Source of the DNA: an uncultured Porphyromonadaceae bacterium
Lineage (GTDB): Bacteria > Bacteroidota > Bacteroidia > Bacteroidales > Muribaculaceae
Length of the DNA: 64,000 bases
Assembly (NCBI GenBank): GCA_947175645.1
Contig: CAMWNP010000002.1
Location: 96,835-160,834, forward strand
Direction: 5' to 3'
This document shows positions 228-63,218 of the stretch, piece by piece. Position 1 is the first letter of the stretch; every line of letters begins with the position of its first letter. The translations under genes and the position numbers were made by a program. Under the pieces are notes generated by a model. It saw nothing but the letters and a program-made list of their open reading frames with translations, was not told the origin of the DNA and searched no databases.

Positions 228-239
228 GTTGGTAATAGT

Positions 240-707: not shown

Positions 708-709
708 GC

Positions 710-1499: not shown

Positions 1500-1502
1500 G
1501 GC

Positions 1503-1850
1503 TTAAAATCTGTTTGAGGCGTGCGTTAGCGTTGTTACCGTTTCGGGCAGGAACTCCTCTACAGGCACCCCAGCCTCGCGGCACAGGAACGCAATGCGCT
1601 CCTTGAGCTTGTCATTGTAGCTCTGCGACCACTCGGCCTCTTTCTCACTGGAGAGTGAGAGGTATTTAACCAGTACCAGCACTGCTGCCAGCGCAATAAC
1701 GCGGTCGTTGTCGGGGGTGTAGTCCTCCTTTGCGGCCAGTGTAGCACCAGCACGCTTGCAAGCGGAGAGCAGAGCCTTTTCAAGCTCCAGCTCATTATCG
1801 CCGCTGCAATAGGGTAATACCTCGCTGGCTATTGCCTGTAGATTGTTCAT
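1503..1850 (-). CDS. Head-tail connector or adaptor protein (115 aa)
   Basis: First gene after the major capsid gene. Helical and acidic. Assigned by synteny. Confidence 0.45.
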   Translation of the reverse strand: MNNLQAIASEVLPYCSGDNELELEKALLSACKRAGATLAAKEDYTPDNDRVIALAAVLVLVKYLSLSSEKEAEWSQSYNDKLKERIAFLCREAGVPVEEFLPETVTTLTHASNRF

Positions 1851-1863
1851 GCTCTATTCGGGT

Positions 1864-3036
1864 TTAGGCGTTTTCCTCTGCGTTGCTCTTGGCATTAGCT
1901 GCCTCAAGGTTACGCACGCGGTAATTGACAATGCCCTCAATCTCGGTAATGGCAGGGAGCGCACGCCAGCTTGCCTGTGTGTACTCGCCTGCCTGCTGGC
2001 CTGTGCTTTCGCCAACCTGCCACTTGGCCACGCGAATGCCATGGTCGGCATCCATGTAGGTTACATCGGGTTCGGGGATAATGCTGTTATCCTCAAATGC
2101 AGGCTGCACCTCGCCGATTATGCCAGCAGGCTTAAAGCACAGCACATCATCGTTGTAGGGGTTGATGAGCGTTTCCTTACGTTTGCCATCCTCGGCCACA
2201 GAGTTGCGCTTGTTTACGATGGTAAATGCAGGCAGCTCAAAGGCAGCAAGCATATTGGTAAGCTCCACAGGGGTTACAGGCTGCCCCGACTTGTCGCTGC
2301 CCTTGATAGCACGGCGCACGGAGGGCAGGTTGATAAGCCAGTAGTACACGGAGGGGGAGATAAGAGTTTCTCCAAACGAAATGCCTTTGTTAGCAAAGGT
2401 GTAACGAATGTCGGCAAGCTCCTCAAAGGGGTTAATCTTGCTCTCGTTGCCTTTCTCCCACGCCGTAGTTGCCACAAGTTTGTTGGCATCGGGCATATCG
2501 TAGTCCACCTTGTAGCGGCGGCCATCGGGGTTATTGAGCTGGGGCTTGAACTCGGCCACACCGCCATTGGAGAGAGCTTGCAGGATAATGTGGTCGGCAG
2601 TATCCTTACAGCCCAAATATGCTTCACGCACATCCTTAATAAGCAGCTTTTTGACCTGTGCCATTTTCTGCTGGTCGGTGTAGCGTGGGCTTTCCAGTAC
2701 CTCCAGCAACTTGCGGAGGTTGTCGGCAGACATGGGGAACTTATGACCCATGCGCGGGATTTCGCCCTCAAAGGTGGTAAAACCATCAGTGGGGCGTGTA
2801 GGAGTGGCCGCATTGTTGCCGATAACGCTTGCCATAAAGCGCACTCTGTACTTTGACTGGAGTGTCTTACAGGTAAGCCCCATTTGAGGCAGGTTAAAGT
2901 CAAACCAGCGGTCAACGTAAAGCTGCTCAAAGAGAGCCTTCTGCTGCTGGCTGGCCGTGTCAAACATGATTTTGAGGGTGGCCAGCAGGCTCACAGGAAT
3001 AGTGGGTAAATTTACTTTGTTAAAAATTGACTCCAT
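1864..3036 (-). CDS. Major capsid protein (390 aa)
   Basis: Size and position after scaffold-like and decoration-like genes and before the neck genes. It is the only gene with a strong SD-like AAAGGAGGTA sequence 6 nt upstream of the ATG. Confidence 0.7.
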   Translation of the reverse strand: MESIFNKVNLPTIPVSLLATLKIMFDTASQQQKALFEQLYVDRWFDFNLPQMGLTCKTLQSKYRVRFMASVIGNNAATPTRPTDGFTTFEGEIPRMGHKFPMSADNLRKLLEVLESPRYTDQQKMAQVKKLLIKDVREAYLGCKDTADHIILQALSNGGVAEFKPQLNNPDGRRYKVDYDMPDANKLVATTAWEKGNESKINPFEELADIRYTFANKGISFGETLISPSVYYWLINLPSVRRAIKGSDKSGQPVTPVELTNMLAAFELPAFTIVNKRNSVAEDGKRKETLINPYNDDVLCFKPAGIIGEVQPAFEDNSIIPEPDVTYMDADHGIRVAKWQVGESTGQQAGEYTQASWRALPAITEIEGIVNYRVRNLEAANAKSNAEENA

Positions 3037-3055
3037 GTGTTACCTCCTTTCGGTT

Positions 3056-3691
3056 TTAGAGCGACTGGGTATAGGCTACCTTGGTACCCTTGAGCAGGTT
3101 GCCCTCAAGGTACTTGGCAGGCACAGGGGGCACGCGGCGAGCGTAAATCTCGCCACAACCGCTGTCGCGTGTAACATTGATTTGGGTATCGGCCAGCTCC
3201 TCCTTGACCTCGGCACTCTCGTAGGTGTCAATGGTAATGCTGTTGGGTTCTGCCACCAGCTTTACGTTGGTGCCATCAGCCACAACCTCAAAGAGTGCGG
3301 AGCCTACTGCAAGACCAGTAATGGCCTTGGAAAGCGTAATCTCCATGCCAGCCTCGGTGTTGGCCACCGCTGTGATGCTGGGGGAGTTTGCGAGAGTGGC
3401 AGAGAGGTCGCTTTGCACCGTATCGCCCACCATAAACAGGGGCTTGCTGAACTCATCTGCCTCCAGCGTTACCTTTTTGGCATCGGTACCAATGGCCACT
3501 ACTCGCGCACTCTTGATGAGCTTGCCGTAACGTGTGGCCTCGTTTACACAGGCCAGCGTGCCAAAGGGAACCAAAGCACCAACAGGCAGGTTGGTTTGAG
3601 CAGGGTCAAGCGTAAAGCCTCCTGTAACCATTACAGGGGGCTGGGTGCTGCACGGACGGGTGCCACCATAGCTTCTTTTCTTGGGTTTCAT
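3056..3691 (-). CDS. Capsid accessory or decoration-like protein (211 aa)
   Basis: It sits between the scaffold-like gene and the capsid gene, like lambda D before E. No motif recognised. Confidence 0.35.
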   Translation of the reverse strand: MKPKKRSYGGTRPCSTQPPVMVTGGFTLDPAQTNLPVGALVPFGTLACVNEATRYGKLIKSARVVAIGTDAKKVTLEADEFSKPLFMVGDTVQSDLSATLANSPSITAVANTEAGMEITLSKAITGLAVGSALFEVVADGTNVKLVAEPNSITIDTYESAEVKEELADTQINVTRDSGCGEIYARRVPPVPAKYLEGNLLKGTKVAYTQSL

Positions 3692-3705
3692 TGCTCTGTG
3701 ATTAA

Positions 3706-4302
3706 TTAGTTTGTTTTTACCTCACACTCGGCAAGCAGCTCCTTGGCCATGTCTGCCTCTGCCTGTTTCTGCGTTTCCGCAGCCACATCTTTGCTGGCAG
3801 GCTTTAAGCCTCGGTCTACAAGGCTCTGCTTGTACCTGCCCAAATAATCTGCCACATCGGCATCTTCGGGAATGGTTACAAACTCCATGTCGGCCTCTGT
3901 AAGACCCAGCTTTTTGGTCTCGGTGGCAATGAGGTTGTCGCGGTTGCTCTTTGCGAGCTGTGCCTGCAACTGGGAAATAGTTGTGGCCTGCTCATCAAAT
4001 TTGGTTTGGAACTTGGCGGTTACTGCCTCCACAATAGCCTCCACGTTGGCCTCAAGCGGTTTCTCGGTGGGCGGTGTTGCAGGGGGAGTGTTAGGCTTTT
4101 TGCCCTGCGCCCATCGGGTAGCCTCGGCCTGCATGGCTTTAAGGACAGGCAGGTACTCATTTGCGCGTTGCTCAATAGCCTCATCGGTCGCATCTTCTCC
4201 CAGCCCATTGCTTGCTATGGTGGCAATTTGCTGGATAGAATCCTTGGAAAGCCCCATGTCCGTGCATTTGGCCTCCAATACCTGTAAAAGTTTTTTCTTC
4301 AT
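3706..4302 (-). CDS. Scaffolding-like protein (198 aa from the ATG at 4302; the track ORF starts at a TTG at 4332)
   Basis: Helical, charged, Ala/Glu/Lys-rich. It is the first gene of the capsid block. Confidence 0.5.
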   Translation of the reverse strand: MKKKLLQVLEAKCTDMGLSKDSIQQIATIASNGLGEDATDEAIEQRANEYLPVLKAMQAEATRWAQGKKPNTPPATPPTEKPLEANVEAIVEAVTAKFQTKFDEQATTISQLQAQLAKSNRDNLIATETKKLGLTEADMEFVTIPEDADVADYLGRYKQSLVDRGLKPASKDVAAETQKQAEADMAKELLAECEVKTN

Positions 4303-4533
4303 TGCTCTACTTGCTTTAAGTGTTCGCTGCAAAGGTAATCAGTAATTTAATATGCGTACAAATACTGAACGCCTAATTTTTGAAAGTAATTCAACCTCAA
4401 TTCACTGCGAATATTGTTAAAGACTGTTAAATATTGCGGATTTTTGGCTTGAAAGTTTGGTATCTTAATTCTTTCCACTAACTTCGCAGCGTACAAAATA
4501 TGAACGCTTTTAGAAAATAAAAAAATCAAATAT

Positions 4534-5052
4534 ATGTTACAGCACGAATTTGAGAGCCGCGTAGGCATTGAGGTAAGCGCAAAAGAGTATGCCGCCATTG
4601 AGCAGGTTTACATGAGCAGCGATGTAGAAAAGGATGAGTTTTGCAAGCTGTGGGCAAAAATGAACCGTGTGCGCATTGCCAATGCTAAAGCCCAGCAAAA
4701 AGCCGCCGCCCAGTTTAAGGCACTCCGCATTGAGGAACAGGTAATTGTAAAAATGCTGGAGTTAGCAGAGCAGCGAGCTAACAACACAGGCTGCACGCTC
4801 CCTGTTAGCGACACCAACATTGATGCAAACAAGGTACGCGCACGCTACGAAGAAGCAGACGGCTTTACGGTGTATTTGGTATTGCGTGATACAGGAGCCG
4901 CAATTACTCACACCTATACAGAGGCCATGAATGAGGCAAAGGCTTTTAGCTCAAGCAATCCTACGGTTTATGAGTTTTTTGGCAACCGCACACTTAACCA
5001 TGGCTACTACAAAGTTGCTGGCTACACCTCTAACCCGAAACAAATATTTTAA
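4534..5052 (+). CDS. Hypothetical protein (172 aa), first gene of the plus-strand accessory island
   Basis: ATG start. It is divergent from the scaffold gene. Confidence 0.6.
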   Translation: MLQHEFESRVGIEVSAKEYAAIEQVYMSSDVEKDEFCKLWAKMNRVRIANAKAQQKAAAQFKALRIEEQVIVKMLELAEQRANNTGCTLPVSDTNIDANKVRARYEEADGFTVYLVLRDTGAAITHTYTEAMNEAKAFSSSNPTVYEFFGNRTLNHGYYKVAGYTSNPKQIF

Positions 5053-5071
5053 CACATAAATACTTACAGCT

Positions 5072-5302
5072 ATGATGATGTGCAGTGTATATGACAAGAC
5101 CACCCAAAAGAGCGAAACCTTTTGCAGCGTGGCAGCCGCTAAAAAACGTATGAAACAACTCCTCAAAGAGGGGCATGAGGTAAGCGGCAGTAAGACTAAA
5201 GTTTACTCAAACGGCGATTGGGTACCGTGCGGAGAAATAACCCTTACAGGCTCCAATGCCGTATTTGTAGCCAATACCAAACAAACTAAAGCAGGATATT
5301 AA
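5072..5302 (+). CDS. Hypothetical protein (76 aa)
   Basis: ATG start, followed by a hairpin at 5310..5330. Confidence 0.5.
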   Translation: MMMCSVYDKTTQKSETFCSVAAAKKRMKQLLKEGHEVSGSKTKVYSNGDWVPCGEITLTGSNAVFVANTKQTKAGY

Positions 5303-5309
5303 CTAACAC

Positions 5310-5330
5310 GGGGCTGGGCTGGCCAGCCCC
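5310..5330 (+). terminator. Stem-loop GGGGCTGG-GCTGG-CCAGCCCC
   Basis: Perfect 8-bp GC-rich stem directly after the stop at 5302. No clear U-tract. Confidence 0.45.
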
Positions 5331-5345
5331 ATAACAAACAAAAAT

Positions 5346-5579
5346 ATGAACGCAGCACGCAGAAAAGAACTTAACAAGCTCATTGAGCAGCTTGAGGATA
5401 TTAAGAGCCAAATTGAAAACCTCCAGCAGGAGGAACAGGACTCATACGACAACCTCCCCGAAAGCCTACAGGACAGCGAGCGTGGCGAGCGTATGCAGGA
5501 GGCCGCAGATGAGCTGGAGAATGCAGCCAGCAGCGTAGATGAAGTAATTGACTACATTAACAACGCAATAGAGCAATAA
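5346..5579 (+). CDS. Hypothetical acidic coiled-coil protein (77 aa)
   Basis: ATG start. Heptad-like Glu/Leu/Gln-rich sequence. Confidence 0.55.
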   Translation: MNAARRKELNKLIEQLEDIKSQIENLQQEEQDSYDNLPESLQDSERGERMQEAADELENAASSVDEVIDYINNAIEQ

Positions 5580-5581
5580 CC

Positions 5582-5785
5582 ATGGCAAAGAGAGTTAAGG
5601 CAAAGGCTCGCGTAAAGGTTATAACCGAATTTGGCAAATGGTGCCTTATGGAGATACGCGGCCTCAAGGAGGGCACAGAGCTTGAGGGCAGTTACAACCC
5701 TCGCAACAAAGCATTTGATTTTAGCTGGAATGGGCAAGACGCTATGCTTTGGGTAGGGCAAAATGCAGAACTAATAACAGAATAA
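5582..5785 (+). CDS. Hypothetical protein (67 aa)
   Basis: ATG 3 nt after the previous stop. Confidence 0.5.
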   Translation: MAKRVKAKARVKVITEFGKWCLMEIRGLKEGTELEGSYNPRNKAFDFSWNGQDAMLWVGQNAELITE

Positions 5786-5789
5786 CAAT

Positions 5790-6221
5790 ATGGCACAGGA
5801 AAGAAATAACACAGCCCTTGTGGCTACCACGCTCACGGCAGAGCAACAGCAGTACCTCAACGACATGGCCGCTTATGGCAAGAGGTTGCAAGAGTTAGCC
5901 TACAACTCGGTAGGCAAATGGGTGGCGGCAGGCTATGCCGATGGCAGAAATAATGTTGCAGGTATGTATTGCTATTGCGGCATGGGCAAAGGTTACAAGG
6001 GTGCGCCCATTGTGCCTGCCAGCGGTAATGCTGTAGTGTTTGCCTCAAAGGAGGCTGCCCAGCGTAAAGCCAGCCAGCTCAAGTATCAAAACGGCAGAGG
6101 CGAGCGCATACGGCTCACGGTAATACCTGCAAACGATTACTTTTGGCTGCTCTTTGATGATTTATGCAATACCATGAGCGTAGCAGAGCGCATGATGGTA
6201 GAGAACAATAAAAGCAAGTAA
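5790..6221 (+). CDS. Hypothetical protein (143 aa)
   Basis: ATG start, tightly packed with neighbours, followed by a hairpin. Confidence 0.55.
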   Translation: MAQERNNTALVATTLTAEQQQYLNDMAAYGKRLQELAYNSVGKWVAAGYADGRNNVAGMYCYCGMGKGYKGAPIVPASGNAVVFASKEAAQRKASQLKYQNGRGERIRLTVIPANDYFWLLFDDLCNTMSVAERMMVENNKSK

Positions 6222-6228
6222 TAATACT

Positions 6229-6252
6229 GGGGCTGGAGTAGTAGCCAGCCCC
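6229..6252 (+). terminator. Stem-loop GGGGCTGG-AGTAGTAG-CCAGCCCC
   Basis: Same 8-bp stem sequence as 5310..5330. It follows the stop at 6221. Confidence 0.45.
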
Positions 6253-6267
6253 ACAACACAAATAACC

Positions 6268-6534
6268 ATGGCAAGAGATAGCAAAACAAAGCAGCTTAAC
6301 GCACAGCTCCAAATAGTACGCCTTGATGGCCTCAAGTTTAAGGCACCCCTCGGCACAGCCAGCACTCGCGGCTGGGGGCTTTACATTGAGGGCAAGGGCT
6401 ACCTCAAATTTAAGAGCGACACCGATTATGTGCCTTATGCTCCCTGTGGAGGCCGTAAAGCACTGGAGAGCATACTGGCCGCTGGTGGCCTCCTCAACTA
6501 CGACAGCATTGAGTTTATTAACCCTGTAAAGTAA
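6268..6534 (+). CDS. Hypothetical protein (88 aa)
   Basis: ATG start in the same-strand gene array. Confidence 0.5.
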   Translation: MARDSKTKQLNAQLQIVRLDGLKFKAPLGTASTRGWGLYIEGKGYLKFKSDTDYVPYAPCGGRKALESILAAGGLLNYDSIEFINPVK

Positions 6535-10300: not shown

Positions 10301-13300
10301 ACTATCTCCTCCAACTCAATACACCAATCGCCAACTTTACCCAGCCCTCGCGTTTTACACTGGTACGGAGCTTTAAGCAATCTAAATTTACTGCCAGCTC
10401 TAAATGTAATCTCACTCTCGCCACCCCCAAAATAACCTACTTTGTGTATATCTACGCCAGTTTTGCCGTAGATTTTCATTATTACACGCTGCCCTTTGGA
10501 GGCATGAACTATGCCGTCAGCGAAATGGTCGGCGGTATGTATGCTTGTTGTAGAGCTGGTGGGTGCAACCATTTGCCATGTCTTATCCTTGCTGTGCCAT
10601 GCCTGCATAATACTCTCCCAAAAGGCATCTTTTGCAGGGTTGGCAATAGCATCGGGGTATATGTTTAGACCTCGGTATGTTACGCCGTTATAGCGTGGCA
10701 TACTCTCAATGGCCTTATTGATGGCAGCCTTGAAATTGGCAAGCAACTGCTCAACATCAGCCTTAACGGCAGCATCAGTAATGAGGCTAACCTTACTTGC
10801 TCCATACAGGTAATCGCATATAAAGTTGGAGCTTTGAGTAAAGTTTGTTATCAGCGACAGCTCGCGTGCGCTCACATTACCACCCATGGCCTTAATCTCC
10901 TTTGCAAGTTGCTCACAGGCCGCTTTTCTACCAAACCAGTTTTCACCGCCAATCTTTTTACTCCAAATACCCCATGGCTCACTGGGAGCTGTAGGATTTA
11001 CAGGAGTATGGCTAAAATACTCCTTAATGGCCTTTTGTACCTGTGCCTCGGTAAGCCCATCTACATTTGCCAGCGTTGGCTGGAGGCTCGCATAACGCTC
11101 TCCTAATTGCGCAGTAAAGTCTGCCAGCCGTTGCATGGCAGAAATAACATTATAGTCGCGCTCATTGCCACTGGCCGCTGTAAGAGCTTTTTCATACTCA
11201 AACACCAGCTTATCCCTCTGTGCCTTGTCAGCGGCGGTATAGAATTGCTCAATATCGTAACCACCACCGCCTTTCTTGCGGAGCCGCGCCAGCCTCTCCT
11301 TGGTAAGCCTATCTACCTCTTTTTGCACCTCGGCCAGCTTGGTTTTTATAGCAGCCTCATTTGGGTGTGCCGCGCCAGTAAGGTTTTGCAGCTCCATTAC
11401 AAGGTTCTTAACCTTTGCGCTCTTGGTCGTTTGAGCAAACACCACCACTGCATCTATATCGGGCTGTATGGCATTGAGGGCAATTTTGGCCTTGTACTGC
11501 TCCTCCAGCTTTTCAAAATACTCAATAAACTTGCCTGTGGTAGGGTATTTTGTGGGGTTGAGCTTGGCATAATATAGTTCCTTTTGAATAACCTTTTGCA
11601 GGAACAGCTCATCGGTGGAGTAAATGCTACTCTTGGCCATGTGTTTGCTCCAGTTGGCCATAAAGGTTTTTGCATCCACCTCTCCAAACTCATTAACCAA
11701 TCCCCACATTGTAGGTTGCTCGGCATACTCGGCCACTGCAATCTTTTTGGCTGCTGCCATTTCCTTTGCCAGCTTTTTAGTGGCGGCCTGTATCTCGGAG
11801 GCAGTGCCATTAGCCACCACGCTCTCCAGTGCTGCGGTATCAATGCCCAGCAGGTCATAATGTCCCTTGCTGGCAGCTCCCAGTACGTTGTTGGCCACCT
11901 TAACCGCTTTGTTGTATGCTGCCACCTCGGCCTTGGCTTGAGCCTTGGCCGCCACAACCTCCTTAACAAAGTTGCTGCCATCATCTGTTAGCTCCAAATG
12001 GTAGTGCGTTACCTGCGTGGCCTTTCCTCCTCGCACAAGGGTTTTAACCTCGGTGCTTACGACCTTGAATTTGGTATTGGGGAGGAGCATGGCAGTAGGC
12101 TCTCCATTTGCCATGGTTTGCAGGTATCGGCTGCCCTTTGGCAAATCAAGTATGCACACTGCGCCACTATCAGCCCCGACAAGGCCATTTTCAAGCGCAG
12201 CAGAGCAAAGTTTGCTGTAATTCGTGCCAACATACCTGCTGGCCGTAAAAGTGGCTGTATCGCCACTTATCGCAGCCTCCAGCGTTTGCTTATCGAGAGC
12301 CACCATGAATTTGCCATTAGTCTTGGTTGCAAACTTGGCCTGTGTTGCAATATGCTCCATCTCTGCAAGCTGTTCGGGAGTGCAGTATTGTGCCAGTAAG
12401 TTGTTGCCCTTGGCAGCCTCGGCCAGTAGGTTTGCAAGCTCGCTGGGGTCTGTGAGCTTTGCCAGTTCCTCAAACTGCACACCGTTTGGAGTTACGGCAG
12501 TAGATAGAGGAAAGCCACCAGCCTTGCCAGCCTCTACAAAGTTGCTGGCCTCGGCAAACTCCTTGGCTGTGGCAGTTTGCATTTTGGTAAACTCATTAAG
12601 GTCTATCTCGGCTTTACCCATGAGCTTGCCAAAATTGGCCAGCCCAGCCTCATTTTTGTACTCATCAACCCACCGAAAGCCTTTGGCAATATTGCCGCCT
12701 TTGTAGTTCTCACGGATAAAGTATGGGAGGCTTTGAGCTGCCTGTATGCGCTCGGAGTTCTCGGCTATCCAGTTTGTAAACTGGGGCGGCATATCTGTAA
12801 CCATGCCAGCAGGTGCAAAGCCCTCGGTGTCCTCGCCTCGGAGTATTTGCCCTGTCAGCTCCTCCAGTTCCTCATCACTGCAAAGGAGGGGTACAATGTA
12901 GCAATAGCAGTGAGGGTGCCAACCCTCAAACATAAACTCTTTGGGATAGGTGCCAGCTAAATCATCGCAAATGTCACGGCAGGGGTGGTTTTTGCTCATT
13001 TTGACCTCAAACCCACATACAAAATTGAGCTGTTGCCAGCGAGTAATATCCGCATGGCGGTAGGCCATATTTGTTTCTGTGCGAGTGAGGCGCATGGCGT
13101 TTTTGTAGCTGCTCCTGTAAACACCTGTGCCAGTATGGTAATCCTTGGGGTTTGCATCAACCCAGTAAAAGCTGTCGGTGTCCTTGTCGTAGCACCTACG
13201 TTTCCACTTGCGGCCATAAATGGGGTTGCCCTCTGCATCCTCGCCCTTTTTGTAGCGAAAGCGGCGAAATAAATCATCGGGGTTTTGCAGGTACTCCCTT

Positions 13301-29464: not shown

Positions 29465-29923
29465 TTACTTTTCGGCCTCTGTCGGGCATTTGTCGGCCAA
29501 TTTTACTGGGTACACATCCATGATGGGTGTTTCCTTAATGCAGAGGGCATTGAAATCGGCCATGGTGTCCTTCATGGTTGCATCAAAGCGGCTCATTGCA
29601 TCGTGCAGGTCGTTGGCTGCCAGCAAGAGCCTGCTGGCCGTCTTTTTCTCCGTGGCCGTGCGCTCATCAAGCGTTACAAACTCCACTTTGCACTCATACC
29701 AGCGGTCGGCATCATCGGCAAACACCACCTCGGAGTAATTCACACGCTTAATGCCTGCCACCTCAAACTCTCCGCTAATGTAGGGGGTAAGTTCCTCCAC
29801 AATGCGTGCCTCGGCCTCCGTAAAGGAGAGCGCATCCACAAGGTATGGCTCGGTAACTTTTTTGTTGGTGCCGTTTTCCTGCATTTTGTCGTAACGCACC
29901 TTACATTCAAACCACTTGCTCAT
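29465..29923 (-). CDS. DUF4494-like protein (152 aa)
   Basis: WFECKVRYDKMQENGTNKKVTEPYLVDALSFTEAEARI matches my recollection of the Bacteroidota DUF4494 family. Its ATG overlaps the upstream stop by 4 nt. Confidence 0.55.
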   Translation of the reverse strand: MSKWFECKVRYDKMQENGTNKKVTEPYLVDALSFTEAEARIVEELTPYISGEFEVAGIKRVNYSEVVFADDADRWYECKVEFVTLDERTATEKKTASRLLLAANDLHDAMSRFDATMKDTMADFNALCIKETPIMDVYPVKLADKCPTEAEK

Positions 29924-30501
29924 GCCTCGGCCTCCTCCTTAACCTTAATGCCGTAGCACTGGAAAATCAGAGCCTCAAACTGCTCTGCAACATACTCGGC
30001 CTTTTCCTTGCTGTTAAGCACAAGGGGGAAACCATAAAACGCATCCGTATACGAACACCGATAACTCGTACTCGCACAGCGGACACCCGAATACTCCGCA
30101 GTAGTCGCAAAAGCAGCAGAAAGGAGCTTAATGCCCTGTCTTTTACGCTCGTCCTCGCCCATGTCGGCAAGCTCCTGCTTGGTGTAAAACCAGTATATCG
30201 GGCACCATGTAGTGCCGTTCTCATCGTACTGCTGGCCGTTGTTGAGAGCCTTGCAGATAACCATGAGCTTGTAGGCCGCGCTGGCCATTTGCAGTGCCTC
30301 CTTGTCGCAGTCGGGAGTGCCACTAATCAAATGCTCACTCATGCCTAAATGGCGGCAGGCATCGCCGTAGGTTTTTATGGAGCGGAAATTAAACTTGAAA
30401 GCATCTGCTCCAAAAAGCTCTCTCAAAACCTCTTTGGTTTCTTCGCTGGCAGCATTGTAGTATTTTACTGCATCAGCCTTATTTGCTGTTAATTGTTCCA
30501 T
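29920..30501 (-). CDS. Remote DGR target protein (193 aa) carrying VR2
   Basis: Residues 125-160 (KLLSAAFATTAEYSGVRCASTSYRCSYTDAFYGFPL) are the TR sequence with substitutions at TR adenines. Confidence 0.85.
   Translation of the reverse strand: MEQLTANKADAVKYYNAASEETKEVLRELFGADAFKFNFRSIKTYGDACRHLGMSEHLISGTPDCDKEALQMASAAYKLMVICKALNNGQQYDENGTTWCPIYWFYTKQELADMGEDERKRQGIKLLSAAFATTAEYSGVRCASTSYRCSYTDAFYGFPLVLNSKEKAEYVAEQFEALIFQCYGIKVKEEAEA
30024..30129 (-). repeat. DGR variable repeat 2 (VR2)
   Basis: 106-nt alignment to TR 42775..42880. There are 11 differences at TR coding-strand adenines and 1 synonymous C-to-T near the 5' edge. Confidence 0.85.
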
Positions 30502-30664
30502 TCTTAATGGTTTTGTTATTTATTAAATCTCTTAATGCTATTTGTGCGAGCCGTATTTTGTTGGCCAGCCGTAGGCTATTGGAGGGTATTGCCTTGAGGT
30601 TGGCAATATGCTGCTCCAGCACCTCCTCAATGAGCTTGGCGTTAGCCTCGGTTATGCGCCTCAT
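30479..30664 (-). CDS. Hypothetical protein (61 aa)
   Basis: ATG start; it bridges the MBL gene and the DGR target gene. Confidence 0.4.
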   Translation of the reverse strand: MRRITEANAKLIEEVLEQHIANLKAIPSNSLRLANKIRLAQIALRDLINNKTIKNGTINSK

Positions 30665-36723: not shown

Positions 36724-37066
36724 AGCCATTGACAATGCTATCAAAAAGCGTTTTTTTGAGGCTATCGGTATGCTCATGGCCAGCAAAGCCTTGAGAGGGC
36801 GGCAAACCTATTGCAGGCTGCACGATATAAACAAACGGCACTTTTATGAACAGGAAAAAAATATTGAAAAGGCCATACTCAAACCTTACTGGCTGGTGCC
36901 ACTGGTAGCCTACTACAATATAAATGCAGAGTGGCTGCTTACTGGCAAAGGTGGTATGTTTAAGCCAGCACCCAAACCACGAAAAGAAAGGGCTGGCAGG
37001 TATAAGAACCCACCAGCCCCAGCGGCCGCTCCTTTGCAGGGAGAGCTTAATCTTGAGGAGCCTTAA
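36704..37066 (+). CDS. HTH-like regulator (120 aa)
   Basis: WLLTGKGGMF motif typical of Bacteroidales phage repressor-like proteins. Confidence 0.45.
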   Translation: MRTEESRAIDNAIKKRFFEAIGMLMASKALRGRQTYCRLHDINKRHFYEQEKNIEKAILKPYWLVPLVAYYNINAEWLLTGKGGMFKPAPKPRKERAGRYKNPPAPAAAPLQGELNLEEP

Positions 37067-38336
37067 AGCCTACCAGCTCCAGCACTCGCCTGTTGGCCTC
37101 ATCCTGCTTGCTGTAGTCTTTATCCAAATAAATATCCGTTATGCGCATTTGCTCATCCACATGGTTTAATGCCTCATGTATGGTGGCTTTGTCAATGTTT
37201 GCCTTGTTGCGTGCCAGTGTAGCCCATGTGTGGCGAGCTGCGTAAAACTCCAAATCGGGTATCTCTATCCCCTCCATGGCTCCAATGAGCTTTAGCCCTC
37301 GGTTAATATAGCCATTAAAGCCATTGGAGGTAGTATAACGGAGGTGGAAATCAAAAACACGTTGCCCTGTTGGGTCACGGTATTTCTCCACCAGCGGCAT
37401 TACACATGGCTCTATCTTTATGCTAATTGTTGCGTGGTCGGCACGCCTGCTGGAGGTTTTTGTGCGCTGGTAAGTAATGCGGTCACCCTCAATGCAGGTG
37501 CAGTTATACAAATCAACGCTATTCATGCCAATTAGGCCAAAGGAGAGCAGGAACATATCGCGTGCCAGCTCTTGCCTTGAGGTTGGGTACTTTGCGCTGT
37601 TTTGGTAGCCAACGCGGCGCGGCACTCGCATAATGGCCTGTAGTTGCTCAATGCTTATGGAGCGTTTGCGAGTGAGAGGAGGGCGCGGCACTTGGAAACG
37701 CTTAAATGGGCTTAACGGTATGCGTATAATGCCTGCATCTTCATCATTATACATGGCTTTCGCCTTGTTGTGGAGTATGCGGATATTACCCAAATATAGG
37801 GAGGGCGCACGCTCTCCTTTTGTCCTGTTTGGGCGTGCTGGCTCATTCAGTAGGAATTTGCAGAAATCAGTGAGGAGTTTAACCGTAACCTCATGTATTG
37901 AGAGGGTGTCGCGTTTTAGGAAGCGTACCAGTGCATTTACAGCACTCTCATAGCTGTGCGCTGTGCCAACTCTGCCAGCCGCCTCTGTCTCTTTAATTAC
38001 CTGTCGGGAAAAGGCAATAAAATCAAGCTCAAATATTCCGTTATTCCTGTTGTAGTTCTGTATGTAGTCCACCACTTGCTCAATGCTCATTACATTGGCT
38101 CTCTCAATGGGCAGAGTGGCCACAATTTTTTGGTAGCCATCAATCGTGCGCTTGAGTGTGTCATTGACTTGGGCGTTCTTGATTTTAAGCCCTCGCGTTA
38201 AATCCTCCTTTGTTACAAATATGGAGGTGGGCAGGTGTTTACGCTTTCGGTTGTGCGTAACTCTAATTTTTACGTTGTATGTGCCATCTTCTTTGCGGTG
38301 GTGTGCATATACAACGGCCTTAAATGTTGTACTCAT
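37047..38336 (-). CDS. int: Tyrosine recombinase / phage integrase (429 aa)
   Basis: N-terminal arm-binding-like domain (YAHHRKEDGTYNVKIRVTHNRK). Catalytic region ARHTWATLA...HEALNH...Y. Adjacent to the tRNA. Confidence 0.85.
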   Translation of the reverse strand: MSTTFKAVVYAHHRKEDGTYNVKIRVTHNRKRKHLPTSIFVTKEDLTRGLKIKNAQVNDTLKRTIDGYQKIVATLPIERANVMSIEQVVDYIQNYNRNNGIFELDFIAFSRQVIKETEAAGRVGTAHSYESAVNALVRFLKRDTLSIHEVTVKLLTDFCKFLLNEPARPNRTKGERAPSLYLGNIRILHNKAKAMYNDEDAGIIRIPLSPFKRFQVPRPPLTRKRSISIEQLQAIMRVPRRVGYQNSAKYPTSRQELARDMFLLSFGLIGMNSVDLYNCTCIEGDRITYQRTKTSSRRADHATISIKIEPCVMPLVEKYRDPTGQRVFDFHLRYTTSNGFNGYINRGLKLIGAMEGIEIPDLEFYAARHTWATLARNKANIDKATIHEALNHVDEQMRITDIYLDKDYSKQDEANRRVLELVGFKAPQD

Positions 38337-38814: not shown

Positions 38815-39420
38815 CTACTTTTTTTTGGTAAAATCAACATAGCGAGCGTATTTTATGCTTGCATGAGGGTTGGAGTTTACAATATCCAACTCCACACGCT
38901 TGCACCCCCAGCGGAAGAAAAGGAAACGCTTGGGCACTCGGTGGGCTACTATGAGGAGGCTGTCATTACTCTCAAATTCTCCCTCAAAGTGGCCGCTGGT
39001 ATCAATGCACCCACTGGCACGCACCCAGCCATCGTTAAACTCAAAGCACTTTAGAGTGTCAAGCCTCGCCAGCATGGGCACATACACAATGCTGTCCTTA
39101 ACCTCTGTTCGCACCTCCACCTTGGTTTGTGAGCTGGAGGCAATAACCTGCTGGAGCCGTTTTGTCTTTATGCCCAGCCGCTCCACCTCGGCCTTGAGGT
39201 CGGCACACTGGGTTTCAAACTCGGAGGCTGTGAGCTGGAGCCGCTGCACCTTGGCTGCATTCTCTCCTGCCTCGGTCTTGTATAACTCAACATCGGCCAT
39301 GAGTGCCGACTGGTTGCCATGCAGCCGCTCATTGTCGGCCTTGAGCTGCTGGCAGCGGTGTATGGCACCGCCAGCAACCGCCAGCAGTGCCACAATAGCA
39401 ATTAGTAGATACTTTTTCAT
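38815..39420 (-). CDS. Membrane-anchored coiled-coil lysis accessory protein (spanin-like, 201 aa)
   Basis: N-terminal TM MKKYLLIAIVALLAVAGGA, then a coiled coil. Directly downstream of the amidase gene. Confidence 0.45.
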   Translation of the reverse strand: MKKYLLIAIVALLAVAGGAIHRCQQLKADNERLHGNQSALMADVELYKTEAGENAAKVQRLQLTASEFETQCADLKAEVERLGIKTKRLQQVIASSSQTKVEVRTEVKDSIVYVPMLARLDTLKCFEFNDGWVRASGCIDTSGHFEGEFESNDSLLIVAHRVPKRFLFFRWGCKRVELDIVNSNPHASIKYARYVDFTKKK

Positions 39421-40682: not shown

Positions 40683-41096
40683 TTAGCGTCTTTGTTTCAT
40701 GTAACTGCGCTTTTTAATGAGGTACATATTGAGCGCATCCACATCTTCCTGCGACACGGCCTCCCTTGCACTGCGGAACTCAAAGCCAGCCATATCTCGG
40801 ATAAACACCACCTTTATAATGGTATGGAATGGGAAACGTAATTTGGGATTTTGTAGCGTTTTGAGTAGCTTTTTACTGCTTGTCCAAAACGCCGTTTCTG
40901 CCTCCTCAAGCTCCCACTTAAATTTTACTACGGTGCGTTTGCCATTCTCGGTTTCTACGCCGTGGGAAAAGCCAGTACACCAAATAGGCTTGTTTATTAC
41001 CTCATCAATACTGGGGTAATCGCCTGTAGGGCGTTCAGAGCTTGCGTCTTCTCCTTGCAGCGAGAAATCGGCAAAATCAAATGTTTCCTCTGCCAT
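40683..41096 (-). CDS. Hypothetical protein (137 aa) immediately downstream of the DGR RT
   Basis: ATG 13 nt after the RT stop. No motif recognised. Confidence 0.5.
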   Translation of the reverse strand: MAEETFDFADFSLQGEDASSERPTGDYPSIDEVINKPIWCTGFSHGVETENGKRTVVKFKWELEEAETAFWTSSKKLLKTLQNPKLRFPFHTIIKVVFIRDMAGFEFRSAREAVSQEDVDALNMYLIKKRSYMKQRR

Positions 41097-41109
41097 ATTT
41101 ATGTTGCCA

Positions 41110-42576
41110 TTATGCTAAAGGTATGTTGTGGAGTTTACAATCGGCATCCACCATAGCGCGGAGTGCCTTGCGCTCTGAAAGGAAATCAAGGTAGGGCTGC
41201 TTTTTGGCCTCATCCTCTATGCCCAGCATAGCGGCGTTGTAGTCGTTGAGCAGCTTGGCCTCCTCGGTGCTGCTGTACTTGGCAGCAATGAGGTTTTCCA
41301 GTATGGTATTGGCCGTAACTGGAGCAGCCACCAGCAGGCTGTCATACACGTTTACCTTAACCTTTTTGCCCTCCTCATCGGCACGCTCCTCAATGTGCTG
41401 GTTGTGGTTGTAGAGCGTTGTGCCTTTGATGCGGTCAATCACATCAAACGTGGGCTGTGCCTCGGCACTGGTGATGCCCACTCTCAAGTTTTCTTTACTC
41501 ATTGGGTTTAACTGGTTTATTGTTAATTGTAATATGCGTTCAAAATGCTCTTTAGAGCAGTGTTGTAGCCAGCCATAATGTGCGGCCAGCTCCATTTTAA
41601 CCTCATGCTCCTGCGTAATGCCATAGCGTTTTTGCACTTGGCGCAACTTACGCCAGTAGGTCATAAGTATGCTTCTGCGAGCCAGCACATTGTAATGGTT
41701 GCTCTTGTAGCCCACGAAATCAATAGAGCGAGCATCTACAGGGAAAATTTGCCAGTTGCCTTTTATGGTCAGCTCCAGCTCCCTTAACAGGTAAGCCTCA
41801 ATTTGCTCAAATACCCAGTGCAAAGCCTCCTTATTGCCACACAGGAAAACCATATCATCCATGTAGCGGAAATAATACAGGCGTGCATGAAAGAGCTTTT
41901 TAACCATTGGCGTTAGCCACTCCTTTACCCAGTGGTCAAATGGTGTTAGGTACCAGTTGGCAAAATGCTGGGAGGTAAGGCGGCCAATAGGTATGCCCTC
42001 ATTGCCCTCGGTGCTATCTACTATTGTATCCATGAGCCAAAGCAAATGCCTATCGCCATAGCTTTTGCGGAAAATCAGTTTGAGTTTATCATGCTTTATG
42101 GTGTCATAATAATGGTGTACGTCTAATTTTAAGCAGTATTTTGTACCCTTTTTATCCTTTTGCAATGTACGGTTAAGGTCGCGGAGGCAAGCATGAATAC
42201 CTCGCCCTTTTATGCAGGCGTAGGTATTGGCAATAAAGAGTTTACGCAAATCATCTTCAATAACATCAATGAGGCAGTGGTCAATTATGCGGTCGGGCAT
42301 GAGCTTGGCTATTTTTAGCACTCGCGTTTTAACCTTGCCGCCTGTTTTCTCCTTAATGATTTTCTTTGTATAAGGAGAGGGTATGTACTTGCGCTTATCA
42401 AGCAGCTCCCATACCTCGGTTATTGCCTCAATAAAGCCCTCGTTTAGTAGCCGCTGCACATCGTGCCTGTGCCGCTTACCCCGTATGGTGTTTAGGGTTG
42501 CGTGCAGCACGTTTTGAGGGTCGCATACTTTCCAGTAGCTGTTGTTATCGTAGCTGTGGTAAATTTTATGTGCCAT
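41110..42576 (-). CDS. DGR reverse transcriptase (488 aa) with a C-terminal extension of about 125 aa
   Basis: The DGR-specific motif IGRLTSQHFANWYL lies at residues 197-210; IGRLTSQ itself is 41968..41988. YMDD is at 41854..41865. The gene is adjacent to the TR. Confidence 0.9.
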   Translation of the reverse strand: MAHKIYHSYDNNSYWKVCDPQNVLHATLNTIRGKRHRHDVQRLLNEGFIEAITEVWELLDKRKYIPSPYTKKIIKEKTGGKVKTRVLKIAKLMPDRIIDHCLIDVIEDDLRKLFIANTYACIKGRGIHACLRDLNRTLQKDKKGTKYCLKLDVHHYYDTIKHDKLKLIFRKSYGDRHLLWLMDTIVDSTEGNEGIPIGRLTSQHFANWYLTPFDHWVKEWLTPMVKKLFHARLYYFRYMDDMVFLCGNKEALHWVFEQIEAYLLRELELTIKGNWQIFPVDARSIDFVGYKSNHYNVLARRSILMTYWRKLRQVQKRYGITQEHEVKMELAAHYGWLQHCSKEHFERILQLTINQLNPMSKENLRVGITSAEAQPTFDVIDRIKGTTLYNHNQHIEERADEEGKKVKVNVYDSLLVAAPVTANTILENLIAAKYSSTEEAKLLNDYNAAMLGIEDEAKKQPYLDFLSERKALRAMVDADCKLHNIPLA

Positions 42577-42774
42577 TGCTGTTATAAGAGCTTTCGCGCT
42601 CGCGGCTGGTGCCGCGCTCTACTCGCACTTTACAATCTCCATATTCTTTTGCCAGTAACCAGCCCCACTAATGCTGGGGCGTGGCTACTCTTGAGAGGCA
42701 TGGTCTTGGTGGGGTTGTTGAGTGGCCTATACTCCCGAAAGAGCGTAGAACCGAAAAAGTAATAAACGGTATAA

Positions 42775-42880
42775 GGGGGAAACCATAATTCGCATTCGTA
42801 TTCGAACACCGATTACTCGTATTCGCACAGCGGACACCCGAATTCTCCGCATTATTCGCATTAGCAGCAGAGAGGAGCTT
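42775..42880 (-). repeat. DGR template repeat (TR)
   Basis: Intergenic, between the target gene and the RT. Coding sense reads KLLSAANANNAENSGVRCANTSNRCSNTNANYGFPL with nine AAT codons. Both VRs differ from it at its adenines. Confidence 0.9.
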
Positions 42881-43035
42881 CCCGAAACCACCGCAACCGC
42901 GTTTTTGACCGAAAGCCGTAACGCTTGCTATGGTAATGGCCATGGCCACGCACCGCTCAAGGCGGTGCTTTAGGGGGATTGTTCATTTCTATATTGTTTT
43001 GAGTTACTTTTTCACTTTGTTATGCTGCCAGCTTT

Positions 43036-44466
43036 TCAAATGCCCTCGGAGGCCGAAAATTCAAGGCACAGGGGGAAACCACAACCCGCAAGCGTAATCG
43101 AACACCGATAACTCGTATCCGCACAGCGGACACCCGAATTCTCCGCACCATGCGCAGTAGCAGCAGAGAGGAGCTGTCTCCAGCCCTCCTCGTTGTTATC
43201 ATCTGTAGCAGGGTAAGAGTGCCACCAGTAATCGCCGTAGTTTTTATTGGCAGCTCCACCTACAACGCTGTTGGGGAAAGTCCAGCCATTAGCATACCCC
43301 ATTTCGGAGATATAGCCAGCGTTTACAGGCACGGCTCCCAGCTCCTCATAACCTGCCAGCGTGCGCACTCGGTCATTGGCAGGGTTGGCAAACTGGGCAG
43401 GGTCATTGCAAAGGAAAATAAGGCCATCGCCTCCGTCACTGGGCTTGCTGTACCATACGCGCACATCATCGTTATGCTCCCACATATACCTTTGCGGAGC
43501 CTCCCAGCCACGGTAACTGGCCACCTGTACCACTTTATCCACGCCTGTTTTCCAGTTCTTAATGGTATAGTCCACCACGCCAGTATTGTTGCCCAGCTTG
43601 GCAGTTACGCCACAAGGGATAAATGGATAGTAGCCGTTATATGTGTTCCACTCGGTACCATTTACCAGTGTGCCCATACCCAGCCCACCCTGCGCAAAAC
43701 CATCTTCTGTTTTGGCAGAGTTAAATGCAGTATCGCTGCTCAAATCGCCAAACTCAATGGCCATGAGCCAGCTCATTTCTTCGCGGAAATGCCAGCCTCC
43801 AAAGTGCCACATGGCACCCAGCGAGCGGCAGCGTGTGCGGAACGTGGCCATGTTGGCACTGGCACTACTCATGGGCATACCCTGCACAGAGCGGTAGGTG
43901 CCATCCCATGCCGTTTGGTTGTTGCCCCCTCGGTACTCGGCAGCATTACTGGTAAGCTCCAGCAAGCCGTTGGCATCACGCTTGAGTGAGCCGTCTGCAT
44001 TCCACTGGAGGAAAGAGGCACAGGTGGGCAGGTTGGTTGTACGGTTACAGGTAGCGAGCCATGGGGAGCGCGACCGCTCTTTCATGTGGATAAATCCAGG
44101 CAGTGGCACCTCGCTAATGGCTACCAGCATATAATCGCCATCAAACTCAATGCGGCGGTAATAGTCGGGCTTGTAGAGCTGCACAATGCCGTCAAGGGCA
44201 TTAAGGCGAGCCGCACCGCCTCCCTCCTTGAGGGTGCTGTCGTTGGCTCCCAGCCAGTAATTAACACTGCCATCGGCATTGGCTATGTAACGCCGTATGC
44301 GCTTTTGTATGGGCAGCGAGCGGTGCAGGTCAAGGTTGCCCACGCGCTCCAGCTTGCCATCAGCTACGCAATGCCCTCCGTTCTTGAGGTTAATGCGTAT
44401 GCCATACCACGAATCTTTGTAGGGGAATTGTGGCACGGTGTTTCCTATTCCTATAAGTGTACCCAT
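43036..44466 (-). CDS. DGR target protein 1: tail-fibre / receptor-binding-like protein (476 aa) with C-terminal VR1
   Basis: Last gene of the tail module. Residues 431-466 match the TR sequence with adenine-site substitutions. Confidence 0.85.
   Translation of the reverse strand: MGTLIGIGNTVPQFPYKDSWYGIRINLKNGGHCVADGKLERVGNLDLHRSLPIQKRIRRYIANADGSVNYWLGANDSTLKEGGGAARLNALDGIVQLYKPDYYRRIEFDGDYMLVAISEVPLPGFIHMKERSRSPWLATCNRTTNLPTCASFLQWNADGSLKRDANGLLELTSNAAEYRGGNNQTAWDGTYRSVQGMPMSSASANMATFRTRCRSLGAMWHFGGWHFREEMSWLMAIEFGDLSSDTAFNSAKTEDGFAQGGLGMGTLVNGTEWNTYNGYYPFIPCGVTAKLGNNTGVVDYTIKNWKTGVDKVVQVASYRGWEAPQRYMWEHNDDVRVWYSKPSDGGDGLIFLCNDPAQFANPANDRVRTLAGYEELGAVPVNAGYISEMGYANGWTFPNSVVGGAANKNYGDYWWHSYPATDDNNEEGWRQLLSAATAHGAENSGVRCADTSYRCSITLAGCGFPLCLEFSASEGI
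43071..43176 (-). repeat. DGR variable repeat 1 (VR1)
   Basis: 13 differences from the TR over 106 nt. All are at positions where the TR has A on the coding strand. Confidence 0.9.
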
Positions 44467-44467
44467 G

Positions 44468-44809
44468 TTATTTGGTATTTACAATTAGTTGTGCTGCGCT
44501 ACCTGCACCCCAGTAAATATCGTAGCTGTTAAGCAGCTCCTCACTGGGGGCTATTTCAACAATGCAAAGCTCTACCCAGCCATAAAGAGTTACAGGCACC
44601 TCGCTAAACTCCTCCTCGGCATAGAGCTTGCAGTTAAGCAATACATCACGCTCCATGGTGGAGAGAGTTTTGGGGCGTACATAGACTGAAAAGGGCTTGC
44701 TCTCCTTGAGCCTAAAGCCATTGGAGAGGCTGCTGATTTTGCCCTTGGAAACGATACGGCCTGCGCTCATTTCGGGGCTGATATAGTTATTGTTATACTT
44801 GTTGCTCAT
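44468..44809 (-). CDS. Hypothetical protein (113 aa) upstream of DGR target 1
   Basis: ATG start. Its stop lies 1 nt before the target gene's ATG. Confidence 0.5.
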   Translation of the reverse strand: MSNKYNNNYISPEMSAGRIVSKGKISSLSNGFRLKESKPFSVYVRPKTLSTMERDVLLNCKLYAEEEFSEVPVTLYGWVELCIVEIAPSEELLNSYDIYWGAGSAAQLIVNTK

Positions 44810-56788: not shown

Positions 56789-57252
56789 TCAATGGCCTGC
56801 ACCAGCTCCCACAGGGTGCTGTTCTTGAGCCAGTGAGAAAGGAACTCGGTACGCTCGGAGAGCTTTTTTTCATTCTCCCAGTCATTGCCCAGTGTGGCAA
56901 TGGCCACAATGCGAGCCATGCGCCTGTTATGCTTGGCAAAGAGCTTGCGAGCCTCCTGTCGGGGGTTGCCCTTTATCTGCTCCTCATCCATAGCAAGCTC
57001 AATATACTCAAGGGAGAGGCGGTCGAGCGTGTAGGCTGTAGGCTCTTTGATGATAAACTCTACCTGCTTTTCCTCCCTTACAACTTGCTTTTTGGTAAGG
57101 AGCCGCTGGAGGTGGCGGTAACGCGGTATGCGCACCACTTTATCCTCATAGTAATCTACCGTAAAACTTATGCCTTGGCCTATGAGTAGGCGCAACTCTT
57201 TTTTCTCGGCCTCCATGGCCTCAATTTCCTTTAGCTTATCTTCCTGCTGCAT
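56692..57252 (-). CDS. Tail assembly chaperone (186 aa from the ATG; the track ORF starts at a GTG at 57279)
   Basis: Position between the major tail and tape measure genes, with the overlapping -1 frame ORF described above. Confidence 0.6.
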   Translation of the reverse strand: MQQEDKLKEIEAMEAEKKELRLLIGQGISFTVDYYEDKVVRIPRYRHLQRLLTKKQVVREEKQVEFIIKEPTAYTLDRLSLEYIELAMDEEQIKGNPRQEARKLFAKHNRRMARIVAIATLGNDWENEKKLSERTEFLSHWLKNSTLWELVQAIDLTNNLADFINSMRLLSSARTTIPSRIESQQD

Positions 57253-57265
57253 TTGGTTGGAGATT

Positions 57266-57305
57266 AAAAAGCCCACCACGCACCTTTTGCGTGTGCATAG
57301 TGGGC
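57266..57305 (-). terminator. Intrinsic terminator after the major tail protein gene
   Basis: On the minus strand: GCCCAC-TATG-CACACGCA-AAAGG-TGCGTG-GTGGGC followed by TTTTTAAT. Confidence 0.6.
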
Positions 57306-57333
57306 TTGGGGTTGATTGTTATGGGTGCTTGGG

Positions 57334-57864
57334 TTAGGTGCTGGATTTGGCAGGGAATGTGGCCGTCTTTTTGCGTGCTCTCATCGTTTTCACGCCAGCC
57401 TTGGTGGGCTTGAGCGGAGTAACGGTAAAGTCCACAAGGTTAATGCCCTGAGCTGACATATCAGCGTTAAGCACGGCCTCAATGTCGGCACGCGGTATGG
57501 TGTAAACCAAACCGATTTCGGGCACAACTCGGATACTGGCCTCAATATCCTCATCGGTATCGCTCCAGCTCCATTCCATGTCATCGCCAGTGCCAGTTGT
57601 CTCGCCACCCAAATAGGCTTTGAGGAACGTGGGGTCGGGGTCCATTATGGAGAAAGTAAGGATAGGCACCTTTTTACGCTTGCGGCGTGCTTCGGGTGCG
57701 CTCTGCCCCTCCTCATAATGCTCTGTTACCTCGGCCTTTTCCTGCGTCATTTTGCAGGTGTTTTGGTAGGTCTTGCCGATTTTGCTGTAGGCAGTAGCCT
57801 CGCCGCCATCAGCAGCGATTTTGCCAACCTGTATTTCCGAAAGACCCAGTGTAATTACTCCCAT
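57334..57864 (-). CDS. Major tail (tube) protein (176 aa)
   Basis: Position between the neck genes and the chaperone, with a strong terminator after it. Confidence 0.6.
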   Translation of the reverse strand: MGVITLGLSEIQVGKIAADGGEATAYSKIGKTYQNTCKMTQEKAEVTEHYEEGQSAPEARRKRKKVPILTFSIMDPDPTFLKAYLGGETTGTGDDMEWSWSDTDEDIEASIRVVPEIGLVYTIPRADIEAVLNADMSAQGINLVDFTVTPLKPTKAGVKTMRARKKTATFPAKSST

Positions 57865-57876
57865 GTTGGTAATAGT

Positions 57877-58344
57877 TTATGAGTTATGAAAATTAAAGCG
57901 TATTTTGAACCAAATGCGGTGGCAATTAAGGGCAGCCTCCTCTATTACATCCTGTGCAACACACTCAAACGACCAGCCATTTTCACAGTAGTATTTTTTG
58001 AGTGAGGCGTATGCAAGCCCTGCAAGCTGCTTGATACGGTCGCTCGCGGCCTCCGTGTCTGCTGGCTCGCTTGCGTGTGTTGTGCAGGTGTTAATGTCGG
58101 GTACATAGATATTCACATTGCTGGTGCCAAACTGCACGCTGCCACTCTCAATGGAGAGGCTGCTGATAACGCAATCCTCTACCTTGGGGGGCTGGTTGCG
58201 CTGGGGCTTTTTGCTCTTGGTTATAGAGCCTGTAAGCTGCTTGGCCAGCTCGGATTGAGTTAGCACCACATAGAGTATATCATCTTGCAGCGTGTTAAAC
58301 TGCATATCCTCTTGCAATGGAATTTCTTCTACCTTTTTTGCCAT
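57877..58344 (-). CDS. Copy of 240..707 (neck or tail-terminator-like protein)
   Basis: Exact copy, offset +57,637. Confidence 0.45.
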   Translation of the reverse strand: MAKKVEEIPLQEDMQFNTLQDDILYVVLTQSELAKQLTGSITKSKKPQRNQPPKVEDCVISSLSIESGSVQFGTSNVNIYVPDINTCTTHASEPADTEAASDRIKQLAGLAYASLKKYYCENGWSFECVAQDVIEEAALNCHRIWFKIRFNFHNS

Positions 58345-58346
58345 GC

Positions 58347-59136: not shown

Positions 59137-59139
59137 GGC

Positions 59140-59487: not shown

Positions 59488-59500
59488 GCTCTATTCGGGT

Positions 59501-60673: not shown

Positions 60674-60692
60674 GTGTTACCTCCTTTCGGTT

Positions 60693-61328: not shown

Positions 61329-61342
61329 TGCTCTGTGATTAA

Positions 61343-62689: not shown

Positions 62690-62708
62690 CACATAAATAC
62701 TTACAGCT

Positions 62709-62939: not shown

Positions 62940-62946
62940 CTAACAC

Positions 62947-62967: not shown

Positions 62968-62982
62968 ATAACAAACAAAAAT

Positions 62983-63216: not shown

Positions 63217-63218
63217 CC

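Follow-up and report, generated by a model that had tools for sequence, protein, structure and literature searches.

The experiments on phage DGRs that are known to us deal almost entirely with receptor-binding tail proteins. The stretch of 64,000 nucleotides analysed in this study (the window) carries a DGR whose template repeat (TR) resembles two variable repeats. One of them, VR1, lies in a tail protein gene next to the TR, and the other, VR2, lies far from it in the gene of a 193-aa protein, among genes of recombination and replication. This locus raises the question of whether VR2 is still rewritten from the TR and, if so, what kind of protein a phage would randomise outside its structural module.

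The Phage Genome and Its DGR Cassette

Bases 1-6363 of the window are 100% identical to bases 57638-64000; therefore, the window is a circular phage genome of 57,637 bp that was read past its own start. All the genes concerned lie on the minus strand, in three blocks. The first block comprises the tail fibre, a 113-aa ORF, the VR1 target, the TR, the reverse transcriptase (RT) and the lysis genes. The second comprises attP, the integrase and a repressor/Cro-like switch, and the third comprises the SbcC-like, RecT and MBL hydrolase genes, a 61-aa ORF, the VR2 target, a DUF4494 gene and the DnaD-like and DnaC-like loaders. An identical 193-aa protein was also found in an integrated prophage (L044, 1-1833), next to the host UDG and T9SS plug genes. 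The prophage copy diverges into host DNA at approximately 38668, between the integrase gene (37047..38336) and an ORF at 38815..39420, and the attachment site was therefore placed there. The distance between the TR and VR2 is 12.6 kb in the circular genome and approximately 45 kb in the prophage, in which the two lie near opposite ends.

The RT of the DGR (41110..42576, minus strand) is a single ORF of 488 aa that matched RVT_1 (E = 9e-14) and phrog_1423 (E = 1e-93). Its translation contains IGRLTSQ, and [I/L]GxxxSQ is the motif of DGR-type RTs. The TR (42773..42880, minus strand), 197 nt upstream of the RT gene, has 25 adenines in 108 nt and nine AAT codons in the VR frame. VR1 (43070..43175, minus strand) is located at the C-terminus of a 476-aa tail protein (gene at 43036..44466, minus strand), which is the classical DGR target and matched phrog_5302 'tail protein' (E = 1e-69). 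A 93-aa ORF with a GTG start (42668..42949, minus strand) spans the TR and shares the frame of the VR; it is unlikely to be a gene, since a TR is expected to function as an RNA. Pfam and NCBIfam searches of the small ORFs flanking the cassette did not reveal an Avd accessory gene close to the RT. Two small conserved ORFs flank the cassette at 40683..41096 and 44468..44809 (both minus strand; phrog_29953 and phrog_22750), neither of which is Avd-like, and a divergent Avd near the cassette is possible. On the 3' side of VR1 and VR2, the search for a hairpin or cruciform found no GC-rich inverted repeat, and the fold z-scores were inside the shuffled range.

VR2 as a Copy of the Template Repeat

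When the window was searched by BLASTN with the TR region, two imperfect copies were returned, 30022..30129 (VR2) and 43070..43175 (VR1). VR2 (minus strand) covers codons 125-160 of the 193-aa protein and aligned with the TR over 108 nt without gaps, with 88.9% identity and 12 mismatches. The earlier note on this DNA had reported the same match over 106 nt; the match stands, and its length is corrected here. Eleven of the 12 mismatches are at adenines of the TR coding (minus) strand (hypergeometric p = 1.3e-7, with the 25 adenines of the 108-nt TR as the background). The positions that the note had listed for these differences were exact after conversion to the plus strand, and its readings of the TR and VR2 peptides were both correct. 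The mismatches between VR1 and the TR are all at TR adenines (12 of 12), and VR1 and VR2 of the window agree at only one of 10 diversified positions. The twelfth VR2 mismatch is a synonymous change of CTC to CTT at coding position 9, near the 5' edge. This private change, at window position 30121, lies at a non-adenine site, and the relatives do not have it. It would be explained by a mutation that arose after the last homing, or by a cDNA that crossed over downstream of this position.

Adenine-misincorporating copying followed by replacement of the target with the cDNA is the established DGR pathway. In this phage, the TR would be transcribed, the RT would copy it with misincorporation opposite adenines, and the cDNA would replace the VR at two sites, one in the tail protein and one in the 193-aa protein. 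The support for this homing mechanism is good.

Ongoing Diversification of VR2

A search of public proteins returned 129 close homologues of the 193-aa protein, some of them named Muribaculum intestinale. In an alignment of the 39 closest homologues (at least 81% identity), the mean column entropy was 2.21 bits at the VR codons with TR adenines, against 0.09 for the remaining codons of the VR and 0.23 for the rest of the protein. In two groups of 11 proteins each, the frameworks were identical residue for residue, and the VRs of all 22 proteins were different. In relatives whose TR differs at two non-adenine sites, VR2 matched its own TR at these sites, which shows that information flows from the TR to VR2. 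Judged from this variation between sequences, VR2 was shown to be a functional second target of the single DGR of the phage. The view of the earlier note that VR1 and VR2 look like independent outputs of one TR is supported for VR2 by the adenine-specific mismatches and by the hypervariability among relatives. The framework is constant and approximately 14 codons are randomised; approximately 4e13 peptides are possible, as calculated from the TR.

The Target Gene and Its Neighbours

The target gene (29920..30501, minus strand) shares 4 nt with the DUF4494 gene (29465..29923), and its start is overlapped by the end of a conserved 61-aa ORF (30479..30664, minus strand). With an overlap on either side, the target gene is in all likelihood transcribed together with the early genes. 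The neighbouring genes encode an MBL hydrolase, RecT, an SbcC/Rad50-like AAA_23 protein, the DUF4494 protein and the DnaD-like and DnaC-like loaders, and the early recombination/replication operon described in the earlier note was thus recovered. VR2 ends at residue 160 of 193, so 33 residues follow it and the VR is not at the extreme C-terminus. A conserved helical tail is present on the C-terminal side of the VR throughout the family. The maximum Kyte-Doolittle hydropathy of the protein is 0.97 (19-aa window) and its N-terminus is hydrophilic; therefore, the protein has no signal peptide or transmembrane segment. What the note had said of the 193-aa ORF, the 4-nt overlap with DUF4494, the 33-residue tail and the hydrophilic N-terminus without a signal peptide or transmembrane segment was correct in each respect.

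The Same Arrangement in Other Phages

The earlier note had left it to be seen whether homologues of the protein are DGR targets in other phages, and family members proved to be targets in Versailles, LoVEphage and four IMG/VR phages. Phage Versailles (ON453897) encodes a homologue of 193 aa, and its gene order agrees with that of the window (SbcC-like, RecT, MBL hydrolase, small ORF, target, replication genes), and its cassette of tail-protein VR1, TR and RT adjoins the lysis genes, as it does here. The two targets share only 30% protein identity. The VR of the Versailles homologue (10550..10661) has adenine-specific mismatches to the Versailles TR. In LoVEphage (OY725593), the homologue (57015..57599; 32% identity, E = 3e-11, the same PHROG) is located among DUF2400, methyltransferase and RtcB genes, whereas that of the window is located between recombination and replication genes. 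The LoVEphage VR (57097..57207) matches the TR at 41084..41201 and is adenine-mutagenised. In the four IMG/VR genomes, the family proteins are 46-85% identical to that of the window, the TR lies just upstream of the RT, and the VR mismatches are at TR adenines in 9 of 9, 15 of 15, 9 of 9 and 11 of 12 cases.

The arrangement with a remote target is kept in the seven genomes checked, which belong to three lineages with differing TRs, and in three phage lineages the target gene lies in regions of DNA metabolism or modification. The adjoining gene varies, being DUF4494 in the window and DUF2400 in LoVEphage, and DUF4494 is conserved in neither Versailles nor LoVEphage; therefore, there is no consistent functional partner. 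Among 79 IMG/VR loci of the family, 78 have no RT within 10 kb of the family gene, so that members of the phrog_11581 family are, as a rule, encoded far from the RT cassette. No TR was found within 10 kb of the 79 loci, where the search returned only paralogous duplications (four loci). An exact 18-mer scan of genome contigs with the adenine-free VR core gave only chance matches in high-GC genomes, and megablast of the target locus against the phage collection gave no match. In a sister clade, four IMG/VR contigs (L056, L059, L061 and L069; approximately 53-75 kb) share an identical VR-like segment. In each of them the VR core 16-mer occurs only once, and the 80 best RT loci include none of the four. 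The VR of this clade may have become frozen when the DGR was lost.

In the seven genomes checked, the homology between TR and VR stops at one common point. At the 3' junction of VR2 (30010..30031, minus strand), the window reads …CCCCCTT/GTGCTTAACAGC, which is a target-type (IMH-like) junction, whereas the TR junction reads …CCCCCTT/ATACCG. Both VRs of the seven genomes have junctions of the GTGC or TGC type (CCTTGC in LoVEphage), and the TRs have ATAC, TTAC or AAC. The comparison shows that VR2 bears the target-type 3' signature. In BPP-1, the difference between IMH and IMH* makes DGR homing one-way. By analogy, we infer that the junction shared by the VRs would direct one-way homing in these phages.

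The small ORF at the start of the target gene has homologues at the same place in L047 (9831-10016, 54% identity) and in Versailles (L003 10033-10194, 34% identity). An overlapping small ORF of 53-61 aa is present in three phage lineages, and LoVEphage is without it. A 59-aa ORF downstream of the LoVEphage target was considered as its equivalent and rejected, the sequences being unrelated. The 61-aa ORF had no match in any family library. Its conservation suggests that the small ORF and the hypervariable gene may form a two-gene cassette.

Protein Family and Predicted Fold

The 193-aa protein matched phrog_11581 over residues 13-188, which is its full length (E = 1.2e-31), and the homologues of Versailles (E = 1e-78) and LoVEphage (E = 1e-50) matched the same family. 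An exhaustive profile search returned 1460 representatives (50% clustering), 332 of them with E ≤ 1e-10. Members of the family are mostly single-domain proteins of 160-200 aa, with a few tandem duplications. P0259, P0264 and P0297 (loci L075, L078 and L079) are either fusions of two tandem domains or pairs of adjacent paralogues, and the forms of approximately 160 aa lack a helical insert equivalent to residues 107-125. Three clusters at 90% identity (P0133, P0138 and P0238, of the LoVEphage and Versailles types) contain 37,449, 14,127 and 4,771 distinct sequences. Such sizes are as expected for a hypervariable gene and are its footprint in the database.

Searches for a known domain or fold were negative. 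Pfam at E ≤ 10 gave nothing relevant for 57 family members, NCBIfam and PADLOC contained no family for them, and Pfam on the longer or fused members showed no informative domain fusion. PDB sequences searched against the alignments of the family and of the tail protein gave no meaningful match, the one sub-threshold match being a de novo designed protein. In two AlphaFold models (pLDDT 75 and 79), the framework was confident and mostly helical, and residues 128-157, which belong to the VR, were mostly below a pLDDT of 50. Foldseek against the PDB, with the VR modelled at low confidence, returned no match with E below 1, C-type lectin folds included. In BFVD, the structures that Foldseek matched were all uncharacterised proteins from sipho-, podo- and crAss-like viruses of the gut. 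For the Quimbyvirus targets, Benler et al. 2021 (PMC8008677) reported a CLec domain on the basis of HHpred.

Possible Roles of the Hypervariable Protein

In this study, we lean towards the view that the 193-aa protein is a non-virion, early-expressed variable binder that acts inside the infected cell. This view is favoured because the placement of the gene among DNA-metabolism and modification genes is conserved, the gene overlaps its neighbours in the recombination/replication block, the protein has no export signal, and its scaffold is unrelated to those of tail proteins. The non-structural second targets already in the literature (PMC8008677, PMC12629997) are a precedent for it. In the infected cell, the hypervariable segment would serve as a surface that binds a ligand, and the ligand would be a variable factor of the host or of a competitor, which fits a role in phage-host conflict. 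Going further, we tentatively speculated that the phrog_11581 family could be an intracellular, antibody-like counter-defence arm, in which early cytoplasmic binders are diversified alongside the tail protein by one template. The randomised surface would then be selected in each generation against host defence or restriction components or against competing mobile elements, which the earlier note had named as possible targets. Counter-defence neighbours of the LoVEphage type (methyltransferases, tRNA ligase) are not among the neighbours of the target in the window.

Virion components can be encoded outside the structural module, and the 193-aa protein might be a virion-associated or lysis-released adhesin for receptor, mucus or host binding, so that VR2 would serve tropism as VR1 does. 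The TR is common to the tail protein and VR2, which gives both proteins the same variable-segment chemistry, and in L047 large collagen-like and giant proteins are encoded within approximately 2-7 kb upstream of the gene. In addition, other phage DGRs with two targets have been read as acting on two binding proteins (tentaclins, PMC10743442; Bacuni phages, PMC8143477). The second targets of those phages, read as surface or receptor-binding proteins (CLec and Ig, or fimbrial-tip-like), do not belong to phrog_11581. However, in the window, Versailles and LoVEphage the gene is found in DNA-metabolism regions rather than in tail modules, the protein is without an export signal, and the agreement between VR1 and VR2 of the window at only one diversified position in 10 also speaks against the adhesin. 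The scaffold outside the VR is unrelated to that of the tail target. At the DNA level, the similarity between the two does not go beyond the VR, and at the profile level it extends approximately 25 residues further upstream; therefore, the same variable cassette is carried on two otherwise unrelated scaffolds. Neither homology to tail proteins beyond the VR nor a location in the tail module was found for the 193-aa protein, and where its homologues match phrog_5302, the match is confined to the VR segment. The Versailles record labels the gene 'tail protein', and we rejected this label as an artefact, since the VR segment alone matches the C-terminus of phrog_5302. On this evidence, we hold the adhesin to be a somewhat doubtful explanation.

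It is unlikely that the gene is a bystander, which acquired a VR cassette together with its homing junction and tolerates the mutations while its function is independent of the variation. No ligand or phenotype is known, and the identical VR of the four sister-clade contigs suggests that the family can work without variation. Against this, the arrangement is kept in the seven genomes of three lineages although their TRs differ, and TR, VR1 and VR2 therefore co-evolve. The AAT codons in the reading frame of the VR cannot be turned into stop codons by mutation, and the framework around the VR is strongly conserved.

The earlier note had named invariance of VR2 across related genomes as the mark of a decayed relic, and VR2 was hypervariable across the relatives. 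The only point that would suit a VR2 no longer receiving cDNA is the single non-adenine difference near its 5' edge, but the 22 different VRs on identical frameworks, the VRs that follow their own TR, the restriction of variation to adenine codons and the intact 3' junction effectively rule it out. An origin by simple paralogous duplication, which the note had also weighed, or by gene conversion between two C-terminal domains has only the sequence similarity in its favour. It has next to no probability and is ruled out by mismatches that are adenine-specific relative to a non-coding third copy beside the RT and by the confinement of similarity with the tail target to the VR and the residues just upstream. 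The variable intracellular binder remains the reading that we prefer for a protein whose VR2 is diversified.

Relation to Known DGR Systems

BPP-1 Mtd, a protein of the tail-fibre tip, carries its VR at the very C-terminus, and its structure has been solved as a CLec fold. The DGR of the window resembles that of BPP-1 in the mutagenesis of TR adenines, in the use of AAY codons and in a target-specific 3' junction (IMH versus IMH*). Unlike Mtd, the target of the window has 33 residues after its VR and its gene lies outside the tail module, and unlike BPP-1, neither an Avd nor a downstream hairpin was found for this DGR.

Studies have shown that a phage DGR can have a distant second target. Benler et al. 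2021 (PMC8008677) described the DGR of Quimbyvirus, which has a target within the structural module and another that is non-structural. A study in Nature 2025 (PMC12629997), which cites Benler 2021 for LoVEphage, reported four prophage species with a second VR that is distal from the RT and near counter-defence genes. The metagenome survey of DGRs by Roux et al. 2021 could not detect remote targets. The novelty that the earlier note had implied is thus not upheld, since distal non-structural second targets were already published (PMC8008677, PMC12629997) and the LoVEphage target is homologous to that of the window. The distal second target is an already known phenomenon, and it had been reported before in Bacteroides phages with targets of this protein family. 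Quimbyvirus and LoVEphage share with the window phage one RT and one TR, a tail VR by the cassette, another VR at a distance of more than 10 kb, and a second target of approximately 190 aa outside the structural module. Their host is Bacteroides or Phocaeicola, whereas the likely host of the window phage is a member of the Muribaculaceae.

What this study adds is the homology that unites the distal targets of LoVEphage and Quimbyvirus into one protein family, and the presence of this family in a second phage lineage and host family, inside a recombination/replication block. The evidence of diversification at the population level, the shared 3' junction and the conserved overlapping small ORF are also new. 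A target that is conserved and diversified without a structural context implies that phages benefit from randomising more than adsorption. If the protein acts intracellularly, it would represent a programmable-binder strategy in phage-host conflict and would offer a compact natural scaffold for DGR-based protein engineering. Versailles is a prophage of Bacteroides caecimuris I48 that was induced and formed virions in OMM12 mice (PMC10197239), and the papers naming this phage mention no DGR ('DGR' has 0 occurrences). The pair of Versailles and B. caecimuris I48 is thus a tractable system for the location, timing and ligand of the protein.

The RT is one ORF in the window phage, whereas its homologues in Versailles (L004 8083-9661) and LoVEphage (L046 19478-21021) are split across two frames, near residue 360 and near residue 195, respectively. 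The split RTs of these two phages echo the frameshifted RT of Quimbyvirus (Benler et al. 2021, PMC8008677).
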